DNA from: Solirubrobacteraceae bacterium
GTDB taxonomy: Bacteria; Actinomycetota; Thermoleophilia; Solirubrobacterales; Solirubrobacteraceae
Direction of reading: 5' to 3'
Assembly: GCA_035567335.1 (NCBI GenBank)
Contig: DATMPZ010000048.1
Coordinates: forward strand, 7,020 to 71,019
Length of the DNA: 64,000 nt
In this document: positions 16,356 through 20,258 of the stretch, piece by piece
How positions within the stretch are numbered: position 1 is the stretch's first letter
Layout: the number at the start of each line of letters is the position of its first letter
Notes under the pieces: model-generated
Told to the model about the DNA's origin: nothing
What the model saw: only the letters and a program-made list of their open reading frames with translations
Databases searched by the model: none
Made by a program: the position numbers and the translations under genes

Positions 16356-17209
16356 ACGGGGGCTCCGTGGCCGGTTACGGGGGTGAGGGCGTCAGGGGCG
16401 GTCGGGCTTTGACCGATCAAAGATCGGCCAGCATCCGCGCAGGCGGTTCCCGCTCGGCGCGGGTTGGCGCTGGCCGATCGGAGATCCCGTCGATCTCCGA
16501 TCGGTATCCGGCCCCGCATCAGCTCGGATCGCGAGACAGCCCGCGGGCGCCGGTGACAGGCGTCGGCGAAGTGGTCCGCCATGCGTGTCCGAAAGCCGTC
16601 CGGATCGATCGTGCGTCCGGAAGGAAGCTCGCGGGCGATCGAGGTCATCGTCACGTCCGGGAGACCGCAGGCGATCACCCACGAGAACGGCGCGAGATCG
16701 ACGTCGACGTTGACGGCGAATCCATGGGTGGCGATGCCGCGCGAGACGTGCACGCCGATCGAGGCGATCTTGCGGTCCTCCACCCACACGCCGGTATAGT
16801 CGGGTCCCTCTTCGCAACGCGAACGCGCCTTTACGCCGTAGCCGGCCAGCGCGGCAATGATCGCGGCTTCCATCGTGCGCAGATGCGCGCCGATGTCATC
16901 GACGCGCATGATCGGATAGCCGACCAGCTGGCCGGGACCGTGGTAGGTGACGCGCCCGCCGCGGTCTGTCTCGACGACCTCGATGCCACGCGCGCGGTAG
17001 AGGTCCTCGCCGAGCGTCAGCTCCCCCGGCGCCGAGCGCCGTCCGCGCGTGTAGACGGGCGGATGTTCGAGCAGCAGCAGCGTGTCTGGCAGCTCCCCGG
17101 TCAGCCGGAGTTCGCGGATGTGCAGTTGCAGGGCGAGCGCGTCGCGGTAGGAGGCCGTGCCCAGGTGGTGCACCCATAGCTCCGGTGAGGACGGTTTGGC
17201 TTCGATCAT
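16352..17209 (-). CDS. lipB: Lipoyl(octanoyl) transferase with a repeat-derived C-terminal extension
   Basis: LLLLEHPPVYTRG, DRGGRVTYHGPGQLVGYP, KIASIG, HGFAVN; start set at ATG 17209. Confidence 0.93.
   Translation of the reverse strand: MIEAKPSSPELWVHHLGTASYRDALALQLHIRELRLTGELPDTLLLLEHPPVYTRGRRSAPGELTLGEDLYRARGIEVVETDRGGRVTYHGPGQLVGYPIMRVDDIGAHLRTMEAAIIAALAGYGVKARSRCEEGPDYTGVWVEDRKIASIGVHVSRGIATHGFAVNVDVDLAPFSWVIACGLPDVTMTSIARELPSGRTIDPDGFRTRMADHFADACHRRPRAVSRSELMRGRIPIGDRRDLRSASANPRRAGTACADAGRSLIGQSPTAPDALTPVTGHGAPV
16411..16504. repeat. Composite of two inverted copies of the GATC palindromic element inside the lipB 3' end
   Basis: Full copy with a perfect 13-bp IR CCGATCGGAGATC/GATCTCCGATCGG at 16474-16504; shortened inverted copy at 16411-16432. 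Confidence 0.8.
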
Positions 17210-17286
17210 CGGCTGCAGTCTCAGGTTAGCGTCGGCCGAAGCGCTCGAAGACCTGGTGCGTTTTCGTCGTCCCATCATACGTTCGA

Positions 17287-17365
17287 TACACTATGACCTG
17301 CCAAGATGAGCGCTATTGAGTTGCTCATTCCGGGGTCCGGTTCGCCGGGCCCCGTCTTTGTTAAA
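17287..17365 (+). ncRNA. Putative antisense RNA, unit A (type I antitoxin-like)
   Basis: -10 TACACT 17287-17292; body GCCAAGATGAGCGCTATTGAGTTGCTCATT; hairpin CGGGGTCCGG-TTCG-CCGGGCCCCG 17331-17354 followed by TCTTTGTT. Confidence 0.55.
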
Positions 17366-17417
17366 CGTGCGTTCCGGCGGGCATCGGGCCCGACTCCCGC
17401 CGGAGCTGGGTTTGGCG

Positions 17418-17462
17418 CTACGTCTGGTTGCGGATGACCGCGACCAAAGCGCAATCGTCGCG
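17418..17462 (-). pseudogene. 3' remnant of a toxin-like peptide gene (unit A)
   Basis: Encodes ..VAVIRNQT-stop, paralogous to ..VAVIRSLR-stop of unit B; 5' part missing and 1-nt shift. Confidence 0.55.
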
Positions 17463-17570
17463 TTTGCGTCCCGTCATGCGTCCGGTACACTGGACGAGCC
17501 AAGATGAACTCAATGGAGTCGTTTATTCCATTGCCTCGGGGTCCGGCATGCCGGACCCCGGCTTCGTTTA
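17463..17570 (+). ncRNA. Putative antisense RNA, unit B (type I antitoxin-like), with its promoter
   Basis: TTTGCG-N17-TACACT (17463-17491); 17498-17531 complementary to codons 1-10 of the peptide mRNA; perfect palindrome CGGGGTCCGGCATGCCGGACCCCG 17537-17560 then GCTTCGTTT. Confidence 0.6.
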
Positions 17571-17621
17571 AAGGGCGCCCCGGCGGGCCCGAGGCCGACT
17601 CCCGCCGGAGCTTGGGTGGCG

Positions 17622-17690
17622 CTATCTCAGGCTGCGGATGACCGCGACCATGAGCGTAATCGCCAGAATGAACTCAACGGAGTAGTCCAT
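17622..17690 (-). CDS. 22-aa hydrophobic peptide, putative type I toxin (MDYSVEFILAITLMVAVIRSLR)
   Basis: Near-perfect SD AAAGGAGGTGA with GGAGG 7 nt before the ATG; single TM helix with basic C-end; paralogous remnant next door; 14-bp IR flanking the ORF. Confidence 0.7.
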   Translation of the reverse strand: MDYSVEFILAITLMVAVIRSLR

Positions 17691-17797
17691 CCCATCACCT
17701 CCTTTCCTGGGCCGGTCGGCCTCGGGCCGGCATGATCGGGCGGTGGGTGATAACCCGCCGACGAACCTACAGATCGCTTCGGGGATTCCTCCGAGGC

Positions 17798-19174
17798 TTA
17801 CAGCGTTAGCGAGGCGGGCTGTTCGAGCAGCTCGCGGATGCGCGCCAGGAAGCGCGCGGCGTCGGCGCCGTAGAGGATGCGGTGGTCGCAGGCCAGTGTG
17901 ACCGTCATCGTCTGACGCGCGGCGATCTCACCGTCCTCGCGCACGACGGGGCGGGGGCCGACAGAGCCAACCGCCAGGATCGCCGCCTGTGGCGGATTGA
18001 CGATCGCGGTGAACGCGCTGACGCCGAACATGCCGAGGTTGGAGACCGTGAACGTGCCGCCGCCGAGCTCGGGTGGCGTGATCGAGTGCTCGCGCACGCG
18101 CGAGGCCAGGGCGCGCGTCTCGCGGGCGATCTCGCCGAGCGACTTGGCGTCGGCGTCGAACACGGTCGGCACGATCAGCACGCCGCCGCTCGAGGGTCCG
18201 TCGGCCTCCACCGCGACGGCGATGCCGACGTTGACGCGCCCGTGCAACTGCAGACGCCCGTCGCGATAGCTGGAGTTCGCGCGCGGGTGCTCGCGCAGGG
18301 CCAGCGCGCAGGCCTTGACGACCATGTCGTTGTAGGTGGGTGCGTCCGCTTGGCCGAGGCGCTTGAGCTCGGAGCGCAGCGCGACGCACTCCTCCATGTC
18401 GATGTCGGCCTGGAGTGAGAAGTGGGGGATCGTGGCCTTCGACTCGGCCATGCGCCGGGCGATCGTCTGCTGGGTGCGCGAGAGCTCGATCTCGGTCGTC
18501 TCGCCGCGGGCCGTTGTCACACCCGCGAGCGCCGCTCCGGGCGACGAGCCGGCGGCCGCACCGGTGGTGGCCGTGTCTGCTACGCCGGATGGCCCGTCTG
18601 CGGCGTCGGCGGTCGTGCGGGGTGTCTCGGTGTGGACCGTCGAGGCGACCGCCTGGACGTCGGCCTTGACGATGCGCCCGCCCGGGCCCGTGCCGGTGAG
18701 CGCGTGCAGATCCACGTCGTTCTCCCGCGCGATGCGCCGCGCCAGCGGCGACGCCTTGACGCGCTTCTGGTTTGCCGTGGGGCTCGTCTCCGCCACCGGG
18801 CCCGGGATGGCCTCGCGGACGGCCTCGGCAGGTGTGGAGGGAGTAGCCGCACCAGACTGGCCGGCTGCAGCGACGGCGCCCTCGTTCGCATCCCCGCCGC
18901 CGGAGGTCACGTGCGCGTCCTGACCGCCCACGCCGGTCCCGTCGCCCGAGCCCACCTGCGCGATCACCGCGCCGACCGGCAGCGTGTCGCCCTCGGCGGC
19001 GACGATCTGAAGGACGCCGTCGAGGTCTGACTCGTAGGTCATGGTCGCCTTGTCGGTCTCGATCTCGACGATCTCCTGCCCGCGCCGCACCGGCTCGCCG
19101 TCGGCGGCGAGCCAGCGCAGGATCGTGCCCTCCTCCATCGTGTCGGACAGGCGCGGCATGACGATCTCGGCCAT
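17798..19174 (-). CDS. pdhC: Dihydrolipoamide acetyltransferase (E2)
   Basis: MAEIVMPRLSDTMEEG, lipoyl ETDKA, PSBD ASPLARRIA..GTGPGGRI, DHRILYG. Confidence 0.95.
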   Translation of the reverse strand: MAEIVMPRLSDTMEEGTILRWLAADGEPVRRGQEIVEIETDKATMTYESDLDGVLQIVAAEGDTLPVGAVIAQVGSGDGTGVGGQDAHVTSGGGDANEGAVAAAGQSGAATPSTPAEAVREAIPGPVAETSPTANQKRVKASPLARRIARENDVDLHALTGTGPGGRIVKADVQAVASTVHTETPRTTADAADGPSGVADTATTGAAAGSSPGAALAGVTTARGETTEIELSRTQQTIARRMAESKATIPHFSLQADIDMEECVALRSELKRLGQADAPTYNDMVVKACALALREHPRANSSYRDGRLQLHGRVNVGIAVAVEADGPSSGGVLIVPTVFDADAKSLGEIARETRALASRVREHSITPPELGGGTFTVSNLGMFGVSAFTAIVNPPQAAILAVGSVGPRPVVREDGEIAARQTMTVTLACDHRILYGADAARFLARIRELLEQPASLTL

Positions 19175-19233
19175 CAGCGCGTCTCTCCCGGAGTGAGACA
19201 CGCGCCCACGTAAAGGCCTGTGCGTCCGGCCAT
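19174..19233 (-). CDS. 19-aa bridging mini-ORF between pdhB and pdhC
   Basis: MAGRTGLYVGACLTPGETR; TGATG overlaps at both ends; CTGATGGCCG present at both junctions. Confidence 0.35.
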   Translation of the reverse strand: MAGRTGLYVGACLTPGETR

Positions 19234-20258
19234 CAGAGCCCCTCCTGCGCGGCGACGGGCGTGTCGGAGCCCTCGCCCCGCCCGAGTGTGGCCAGCGCGG
19301 CGGCCACCACCTGAGGCTCATGTGGAAATGCGATTTCCTCCAGCGGCTTGGAGTAGGGCATCGGCACGTCCGCGCCCGACACGCGTGCGACCGGGGCGTC
19401 GAGGTCATCGAAGGCGTGCTCGGCGATCAGCGCGGCGAGGTTCGCGCCGACGCCTCCGTGCGGCCAGCCCTCCTCGACGACGACGCAGCGGTTGGTGGTG
19501 TGCACGGAGGCGAGGATCGTGTCCAGGTCCAGCGGGCGCAGCGTACGCGGGTCGATCACCTCCGCCTGCACCCCGTGCTCGTCGGCGAGCGTGGTGGCCG
19601 CCCGTTCGGCGGTGAGCGCCATCCGCGAGACGCCGACGATCGTCACGTCCGAGCCCTCGCGGCAGACGCGCGCGCGGCCGAACTCGACGAGCGCGTCCTC
19701 GTCGTCTGCCACCTCTCCGCGGACGCCGTACAGCGACTCGTGCTCGATGAAGATGACCGGGTTCTCGTCGCGGATCGCCGTCTTCAACATGCCCTTGGCG
19801 TCGGCGGGCGTGGCGGGCACGGCGACGAGCAGGCCGGGGACGTGCAGGAACATCGCCTCCAGGCAGTGCGAGTGGGTCGGCCCGAGCTGGTGGCCGGCGC
19901 CCTGGGGCATGCGGATGACCAGCGGCACCGATACCTGGCCGCCGAACATGTAGCGGATGTGCGCGGCGTGGTTGACGATCTGGTCGAACGCGAGCAGCGA
20001 GAAGTTGATCGTCATCAGCTCGACCACGGGGCGCAGGCCGGTCATCGCCGCGCCGACGCCGATGCCGACGATCGTGTTCTCCGAGATCGGCGTGTCGCGC
20101 ACGCGCCGCTCCCCGAACTGCTCGAGCAGACCCTCGGTGACTTTGAACGCGCCCCCGAACACGCCGATGTCCTCGCCGAGCAGCACCACGCGCTCGTCGC
20201 GGCGCAGCTCCTCGCGCAGCGCCGCGTTCAGGGCTTCGCGATAGCGCAGCTCGCTCAC
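19233..20258 (-). CDS. pdhB: Pyruvate dehydrogenase E1 beta subunit
   Basis: LRYREALN, GEDIG, DTPISE, GPTHSH, IDPRTLRPLD; GTG start at 20258. Confidence 0.95.
   Translation of the reverse strand: MSELRYREALNAALREELRRDERVVLLGEDIGVFGGAFKVTEGLLEQFGERRVRDTPISENTIVGIGVGAAMTGLRPVVELMTINFSLLAFDQIVNHAAHIRYMFGGQVSVPLVIRMPQGAGHQLGPTHSHCLEAMFLHVPGLLVAVPATPADAKGMLKTAIRDENPVIFIEHESLYGVRGEVADDEDALVEFGRARVCREGSDVTIVGVSRMALTAERAATTLADEHGVQAEVIDPRTLRPLDLDTILASVHTTNRCVVVEEGWPHGGVGANLAALIAEHAFDDLDAPVARVSGADVPMPYSKPLEEIAFPHEPQVVAAALATLGRGEGSDTPVAAQEGL

Follow-up and report, generated by a model that had tools for sequence, protein, structure and literature searches.

Type I toxin–antitoxin systems combine a translated gene for a usually hydrophobic peptide of <60 residues with a gene for an antisense RNA of extended complementarity. 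Their published record is confined to Proteobacteria, Firmicutes and Tenericutes, to which a first candidate from the cyanobacteria was added in 2025 (PMC12390103, PMC5367252), and the authors suspect homology-based searching as the cause of this narrow phylum range. The known families are lineage-restricted (PMC5367252), as is the one described here. In Fst/RNAII and SprA1/SprA1as the RNA gene is located 3' of the toxin gene and the two RNAs interact outside their overlap (PMC8594479). We analyzed a locus that shows a comparable layout in a stretch of 64,000 nucleotides (nt) from a Solirubrobacteraceae bacterium (assembly GCA_035567335.1, contig DATMPZ010000048.1, positions 7,020 to 71,019), called the window in the following and used for all coordinates unless a contig is named. 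The locus lies between the gene for the E2 component of a pyruvate/2-oxoacid dehydrogenase and lipB, and consists of a 22-codon open reading frame (ORF) on the minus strand, a convergent predicted RNA gene on the plus strand and the remains of a second unit (Table 1). We regard it as quite probable that a small hydrophobic peptide is translated here under the control of an antisense RNA, and we give a probability of about 65% to the reading that the module is a toxin–antitoxin pair in the functional sense, type I-like and belonging to an uncatalogued family. The original prediction, made from the letters of the window without database searches, had already suggested a type I family in Thermoleophilia, a suggestion that now finds comparative support in ~30 orthologous and ~36 paralogous loci; the taxonomic assignment was right as well.

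The 22-codon gene and its predicted messenger

The peptide MDYSVEFILAITLMVAVIRSLR is predicted to fold into one short hydrophobic helix, the core of which comprises residues 7–18, and its C-terminus is basic. Using BLASTN we searched 400 other genomes of the same GTDB genus and found the region of the module (subfamily A) in 50 of them, located between E2 and lipB wherever both flanks were checked, so that the search for homologues and synteny put forward with the original prediction turned out in its favour. Of 32 distinct orthologous loci, 31 keep the ORF at exactly 22 codons and the remaining one carries a 1-nt insertion; in the aligned orthologous loci an invariant ATG follows a nearly invariant Shine-Dalgarno sequence (SD). 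The consensus of the 22 residues reads M-x5-(L/F)ILAI(A/T)L(M/L)VAVIR-x2-(T/R). Summed over codons 7–19, the column entropy amounts to 5.14, 0.46 and 7.59 at codon positions 1, 2 and 3, respectively, and synonymous variation is seen at the isoleucine, leucine, valine, arginine and alanine codons. This pattern indicates that selection acts on the hydrophobic peptide rather than on the RNA, and judged by it the 22-codon ORF is a real coding gene. With its codon pattern, fixed length and strong SD it falls into the class of translated genes for hydrophobic products of <60 residues to which type I toxins belong. Scans of the peptides against Pfam and NCBIfam (E up to 10) and with PADLOC gave no match, in line with the failure of the earlier reading to recognise the peptide.

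The ORF region showed two peculiarities. In one locus (L032, genome G333) a 1-nt insertion at codon 13–14 (CTCAATGG vs CTCATGG in the relatives) shifts the frame and the rest of the module is intact; this locus is either naturally knocked out for the toxin or wrongly assembled. Furthermore, the 15-nt stretch GTCGCGGTCATCCGC at ORF codons 15–19 (17634-17645 and 17430-17441) shows nucleotide conservation beyond coding need and is able to fold a small GCGG/CCGC hairpin; an extra constraint at the RNA level or codon bias alone may account for this.

Upstream of the ORF a predicted −10 box of the TAnnnT type was identified, the three defining positions of which (T, A and the last T) do not vary among 32 aligned loci, and from its position the peptide mRNA would start near 17757. 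For the structure of this mRNA we used RNAalifold on 29 loci. The leader contains the motif ATCACC (17751-17746), which is complementary to GGTGAT within the SD region, and the resulting leader/SD helix is paired at 95.4%, has three pairs changed on both sides and reaches a covariation score that was attained by none of 500 shuffles. One of its pairs (13/69) alternates between U-A and C-G with about five switches on a rough tree and without intermediates. On the strength of this covariation we conclude that the SD-sequestering leader helix exists, as had been proposed from the window's letters.

Right after the stop codon follows a stem-loop (HP1), which shows compensatory changes in six stem pairs and G·U pairs that fit a minus-strand RNA, and with which the peptide mRNA likely ends, as a 3' hairpin or terminator. 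An inverted repeat has its first arm in the leader (17715-17731) and its second arm in the loop of HP1 (17583-17599); the arms are 17 nt long and 94% complementary with a perfect core of 14 nt. The perfect inverted repeat of 14 base pairs (bp) that the original prediction had described is therefore present in the window, but in the relatives it is not conserved at this length, only a 10-bp core between leader hairpin and HP1 loop being kept (87.7% of the cells paired vs 20–45% with the partner slid).

The predicted convergent antisense RNA and its target

On the plus strand the predicted antisense RNA gene (RNA 1) lies ~120 nt beyond the stop codon of the peptide. Positions 17498-17537 are a direct-repeat copy of the 5' end of the ORF (17662-17701), with 78% identity. 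The downstream repeat spans the region from SD and AUG to codon 10, in some lineages only that from AUG to codon 10. As it is a copy of the initiation region, a transcript from the plus strand is its reverse complement, and these ~40 nt of RNA 1 are complementary to the SD, the start codon and codons 1–10. In the orthologues a TAnnnT hexamer (TACACT, TACAAT, TATAAT, TACATT or TAGCAT) is found 6–9 nt ahead of the repeat edge, and the minus strand has no consistent equivalent of it. At the other end of RNA 1 a palindrome (HP2) was scanned as an intrinsic terminator of the plus strand, the scan giving four terminator-like sites vs 0.8 expected, and a T-rich tract follows HP2 in nearly all loci. 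At stem pair 63/78 of HP2, 18 of 30 loci have U·G, for which a minus-strand RNA would show a C·A mismatch; thus, the stem closes on the plus strand only. Its closing pair shows seven double changes. A search of the region against Rfam gave a best score of 20.9 bits vs a gathering score of 50, a generic hairpin-plus-terminator resemblance.

As a coding alternative for the repeat position we considered plus-strand ORFs of 45 and 43 residues and rejected them, the corresponding frames of the relatives ranging from 2 to 94 residues. Two loci carry the ORF but lack HP2 (L057) or have it in degenerate form (L014); should the model hold, the antisense RNA of these loci must end elsewhere, perhaps at HP1 like that of the paralogue on contig C45 described below.

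The RNA and its target were then compared within and between genomes. The duplex of the 5' 40 nt of the RNA with its own initiation region has a mean predicted energy of −54.9 kcal/mol vs −44.0 kcal/mol with the initiation regions of other genomes and −22.0 kcal/mol for shuffled RNA, and for RNA 1 of the window with the intact initiation region the value is −61.9 vs −21.8 ± 3.6 kcal/mol when shuffled. Within the variable codons 1–6, 7.84 of 12 positions match the repeat of the same genome and 5.79 of 12 the repeats of other genomes. Moreover, the differences between target and copy are not symmetrical. Counting as G·U-compatible those with G in the target and A in the copy or U in the target and C in the copy, we found 94 such cells in subfamily A along with 19 opposite transitions and 48 transversions, or 21 distinct combinations of position and type vs 8 opposite ones. 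In several copies the ATG is changed to ACG, ACA or ATA, by which the start codon is gone and pairing with the AUG is kept. According to these comparisons target and downstream repeat co-evolve within genomes. The antisense RNA gene with extended complementarity that is typical for type I systems would accordingly be represented here by the ~40-nt pairing, the conserved −10 box and the strand-specific terminator.

Most of this arrangement had been read correctly from the window beforehand. The minus-strand ORF of 22 residues with its SD, the plus-strand promoter TTTGCG-N17-TACACT, the complementarity of the RNA to codons 1–10 and the palindrome at its end were all found again, now with a conserved ORF length and codon-position pattern, a −10 hexamer conserved in relatives, a repeat that co-evolves with its target and a palindrome that scans as a terminator.

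Setting, paralogues and decay of the module

Table 1. Features of the E2–lipB region of the window and related modules of the same genome.
Feature	Position	Strand	Basis or remark
E1-alpha, E1-beta and E2 of pyruvate/2-oxoacid dehydrogenase	E2: 17798-19408	minus	upstream flank
Predicted −10 box TAGGTT of peptide mRNA	17769-17764	minus	TAnnnT type, directly after E2 stop codon
5' leader of peptide mRNA	17691..17757	minus	anti-SD ATCACC and G+C-rich hairpin including arm 17715-17731
Shine-Dalgarno AAAGGAGGTGA	17705-17695	minus	4 nt ahead of ATG
22-codon ORF and stop, peptide MDYSVEFILAITLMVAVIRSLR	17690-17622	minus	candidate toxin gene
HP1 stem-loop, 11-bp stem	17577..17611	minus	right after stop codon
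HP2 intrinsic terminator, palindrome then CTTCGTTT	17536-17561	plus	terminator scan
Predicted antisense RNA 1, candidate antitoxin, ~72 nt	17498..17569	plus	repeat and terminator HP2
Predicted promoter of antisense RNA 1	TTTGCG 17463-17468, 17-nt spacer, TACACT 17486-17491	plus	conserved hexamer
Second toxin-gene remnant	17418..17456	minus	last ~12 codons and stop, 1-nt deletion, no start codon or SD
HP1 copy of decayed unit	17373..17404	minus	inverted/direct-repeat analysis
Terminator of antisense RNA 2, then TCTTTGTT	17331-17354	plus	terminator scan
Orphan antisense RNA 2 (predicted)	TACACT 17287-17292, RNA ~17300-17362	plus	repeat and terminator scans
LipB (lipoyl/octanoyl transferase), then lipoyl synthase		minus	downstream flank
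Intact paralogue, 24 residues, MANTLNVLAIALLLAMLIIDRLAR	own genome, contig C45 43490-43730 (L196 ~1450-1690)		between GT4 and GT2 glycosyltransferase genes
Third module	own genome, contig C1 ~15170-14900 (L203)	minus	between aminotransferase class III and dethiobiotin-synthetase-like genes

The genome is a metagenome-assembled genome of 2.76 Mb and 93% completeness, and its nearest relatives are uncultured soil Solirubrobacterales and Solirubrobacteraceae. The module lies between lipB and pdhC, as originally predicted. The longest lipB frame begins with the ATG at 17278; relatives align only from residue 21–24, and E2–lipB sites without a module retain an identical short motif ahead of the ATG corresponding to 17209, so that lipB probably starts at 17209. 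With this start the non-coding gap between E2 and lipB comprises ~590 nt, and the promoter of the orphan RNA 2 falls outside lipB. The gap is a tandem repeat with a unit of ~200 nt and 2.8 units, which agrees with the tandem locus claimed earlier for 17260-17770.

The second unit in the gap is decayed. The peptide model matches residues 14–22 at the toxin-gene remnant (contig C48:24440-24466). From 17260 to 17457 the sequence shares 96% identity with an intact module in a genome from the same genus (L011), and from 17480 to 17757 it shares 83% identity with the module of another genome, the join of the two module types falling inside the resident ORF. The decayed unit originated from recombination of a second, differently diverged module into the resident one. 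RNA 2 and the intact initiation region form a weak duplex (−34.3 vs −24.8 ± 3.9 kcal/mol when shuffled), and RNA 2 can therefore be considered an orphan; the toxin to whose initiation region its repeat corresponds is of the L011 type and has been lost from the window.

A BLASTN search with the locus against its own genome showed no second copy. Paralogues were found via the second BLAST match of a relative, a module adjoining murB with a different peptide of 24 residues, and with this module as query 65 of the 400 other genomes of the genus were hit, often with several loci per genome and with peptides of the type M-x5-VLAIALLVAMLVIDRLAR. In every paralogous locus examined the own initiation region is copied 135–175 nt after the start of the peptide gene, the core sequence of the copy being different from that of subfamily A. 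In all 36 paralogous loci the antisense strand carries a TAnnnT hexamer whose distance from the copy is fixed, and the wobble asymmetry is seen here as well (60 G·U-compatible vs 25 opposite differences). The paralogous modules are situated at unrelated loci with MurB, biotin-synthesis and glycosyltransferase genes as neighbours. In the genome of the window, the stop codon of the intact paralogue on contig C45 is followed by one large hairpin; the paralogue also has its initiation region copied downstream and an antisense −10 box TATCGT, and no separate terminator of the HP2 type is evident at this locus. In the module on contig C1 an insertion of ~45 nt interrupts the ORF and leads to a premature stop, with HP1, HP2, the repeat and the antisense TACACT being kept. 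A comparison of the 22- and 24-residue peptide profiles by hhalign gave a probability of 77% over 11 columns, which is only suggestive of homology, and the link between the two groups consequently rests mainly on their shared architecture and on the similarity of their leaders, which cross-match by BLASTN. In 300 genomes sampled from the order and 400 from the class, neither peptide profile yielded a full-length match beyond the genus.

In order to describe the states of the E2–lipB site we surveyed 80 related E2 loci. About 24 of them are empty junctions with E2 abutting lipB and 19 carry the full module. At least nine have HP2, the repeat and the promoter, sometimes with HP1, and no ORF, and in none of the 80 was the ORF found without the repeat. 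The RNA-only junctions include L019, L018/L080, L086, L099, L017 and L091. Broken ORFs all keep the RNA gene, as seen for the insertion in L032, a frameshifted paralogue, the copy on contig C1 and the truncated unit of the window. Loss of the toxin first with retention of the RNA gene is what the logic of addiction would predict, and other explanations for it are possible. A small internal tandem duplication was observed within the repeat region of L019.

Proposed mechanism, alternatives and known systems

From these results a mechanism can be proposed for the locus. The minus strand would give an mRNA of ~185 nt from the TAnnnT promoter to HP1, encoding the hydrophobic peptide of 22 residues, and in the full-length mRNA the leader helix on the ribosome-binding site would limit translation. 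Convergent to it, the gene ~120 nt past the stop codon would give the RNA of ~72 nt, the first ~40 nt of which would be the reverse complement of the direct-repeat copy of SD, AUG and codons 1–10. By pairing with the mRNA this RNA would prevent ribosomes from binding, or would provoke cleavage, and the peptide would not be made; if the RNA is lost, the peptide would be made and could be expected to damage or depolarise the membrane. We infer the transcription of both RNAs, the repression and the toxicity of the peptide; what suggests the repression is that the pairing covers the ribosome-binding site.

Several points weigh against a toxin–antitoxin pair. All compared genomes are uncultured metagenome-assembled genomes, and because they are related and the permutation and asymmetry tests treat them as independent, the p-values are inflated. 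Part of the T-to-C differences between target and copy could be due to G+C pressure acting on a copy without constraint, although the G-to-A differences run counter to such pressure. A generic sigma-70 scan of the region gave no promoter, and the promoter call hence rests on the conservation of the TAnnnT hexamer in relatives. The 5'–3' pairing between leader and HP1 loop shows no compensatory change or covariation in the aligned relatives. With only 12–14 residues, the hydrophobic stretch of the peptide is short for spanning a membrane. Moreover, the subfamily A module was not found in plasmid or phage collections and is inherited vertically at one fixed site, a pattern also to be expected of a small regulatory protein that has been domesticated. 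This leads to the alternative that the peptide is a small non-toxic membrane protein, for instance a complex modulator like KdpF, AcrZ or MgtS, the level of which is tuned by the antisense RNA. The coding and antisense evidence fits this equally well, and the fixed chromosomal position of subfamily A without a link to mobile elements and the very short hydrophobic segment also speak for it. Nevertheless we consider it unlikely, since several paralogues exist at unrelated loci that have no neighbour gene in common, only 50 of the 400 other genomes sampled from the genus possess the module, the ORF has been inactivated repeatedly with the RNA gene being kept and the reverse was never seen, and a double restraint by a sequestered SD and an antisense RNA is typical of harmful products.

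The other alternatives dispense with parts of the module. If the small-protein gene is real and the repeat only a relic of tandem duplication under gene conversion, there would be no functional antisense RNA and HP2 would terminate the mRNA of E2 or of the peptide. In its favour, the locus is a tandem repeat with clear recombination between units in the window, and gene conversion could yield the similarity within each genome. What makes it very unlikely is that the repeat is always limited to the segment from SD to codon 10 in three subfamilies, that the copy is non-coding yet complementary, with a G·U-compatible bias that represents a strand-specific signal, and that TAnnnT and U-tract are found on the antisense strand at fixed distances; in addition, the HP2 stem has C·A mismatches when read on the minus strand. 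An even lower probability has to be assigned to a cis-regulatory or terminator region of E2-lipB-lipA, such as a leader-peptide attenuator for lipB, without any autonomous module. The region does lie between E2 and lipB and on their strand, and its hairpins could modulate read-through into lipB, but ~24 of 80 related junctions do without it, the same type of module is found beside MurB, biotin-synthesis and glycosyltransferase genes, and the peptide has no regulatory codon run and is conserved as a hydrophobic helix. Hardly any weight can be given to the idea that the ORF is untranslated and the whole region a structured non-coding RNA or repeat element. At the nucleotide level there is indeed high conservation of the leader, of HP1 and of part of the ORF, and 22 codons are below the reach of any gene caller; the codon-position substitution pattern, the fixed ORF length, the invariant ATG with its strong and correctly spaced SD and the lack of an Rfam match all speak against it.

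For a type I-like toxin–antitoxin pair the broader picture is one that we hold to be rather probable, namely a first type I superfamily of the Actinomycetota with at least 2–3 multi-copy subfamilies of 22–24 residues, restricted as sampled to one large soil genus of the Solirubrobacteraceae and showing cognate convergent RNAs and toxin-first decay. Our literature search found no actinobacterial or Solirubrobacter example of a type I system. If this picture is true, the phylum limit of these systems is an artefact of searching and not biology. With this comparatively supported candidate family in the Actinomycetota, dozens of natural variants provide ready compensatory-mutation data for RNA–RNA pairing, one chromosomal site offers natural empty, full, RNA-only and duplicated alleles, and the paralogues are suited for tests of cognate specificity. 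The parts are short (a peptide of 22 residues and an RNA of ~72 nt) and the hypothesis is therefore directly testable by synthesis and expression. A copy of the initiation region of a small ORF located downstream, past a hairpin and by a −10 box on the opposite strand, is also a search signature free of homology that might be used for similar systems in other high-G+C phyla.

Among the known systems, par (Fst/RNAII) from plasmid pAD1 of Enterococcus faecalis comes closest. It likewise consists of a convergent peptide mRNA and small RNA with the RNA gene 3' of the toxin gene, its RNAs interact via DNA direct repeats that include the initiation region and lie outside the 3' overlap (PMC8594479), and translation is limited by structure at the 5' end of its toxin mRNA. 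The predicted layout of our locus, with convergent RNAs and direct repeats over the initiation region, corresponds to this. In contrast to par, however, the peptide shows no similarity to Fst, no match in Pfam or NCBIfam and no Fst motif, the absence of the latter having been pointed out in the original prediction, and there is one long repeat instead of two short ones. Furthermore, HP1 for the sense and HP2 for the antisense direction appear to be separate, as the G·U pairs of HP1 fit the sense strand and the U·G pairs and the U-tract of HP2 the antisense strand, whereas par has one shared bidirectional terminator, and the host of par belongs to the Firmicutes whereas our locus is chromosomal in the Actinomycetota. 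SprA1/SprA1as (PepA1) from Staphylococcus aureus also has its antisense RNA encoded 3' of the toxin gene and a small membrane peptide as toxin, and SprA1as reaches the initiation region in trans with a 5' domain that does not overlap (PMC8594479), for which the layout is alike here; the peptides are unrelated, of different length and from different phyla. By its peptide the locus is not a member of the Fst/RNAII or SprA1/SprA1as families.

Less similar is hok/Sok, since the 10-bp complementarity of leader and HP1 loop in our locus lacks compensatory change, no overlapping leader ORF (mok) is present and the RNA gene lies downstream without 5' overlap. With Ibs/Sib, Ldr/Rdl, Zor/Orz and AapA/IsoA the locus shares a very short hydrophobic peptide (18–19 residues for Ibs), several paralogues per genome, each with a cognate RNA, together with tandem duplication, and a layered control of translation by mRNA folding and antisense RNA. 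It differs from them in having no sequence similarity and in the position of the RNA gene, which is overlapping or 5' in those systems and downstream and convergent here. MsoT1/MsoA1 from Microcystis aeruginosa (PMC12390103) is similarly a type I candidate found by de novo criteria beyond Proteobacteria, Firmicutes and Tenericutes, but its sequence is unrelated and MsoA1 binds the 3' end of the coding region. For MsoT1/MsoA1 toxicity data from E. coli are available, whereas the candidate family described here has broad comparative support.

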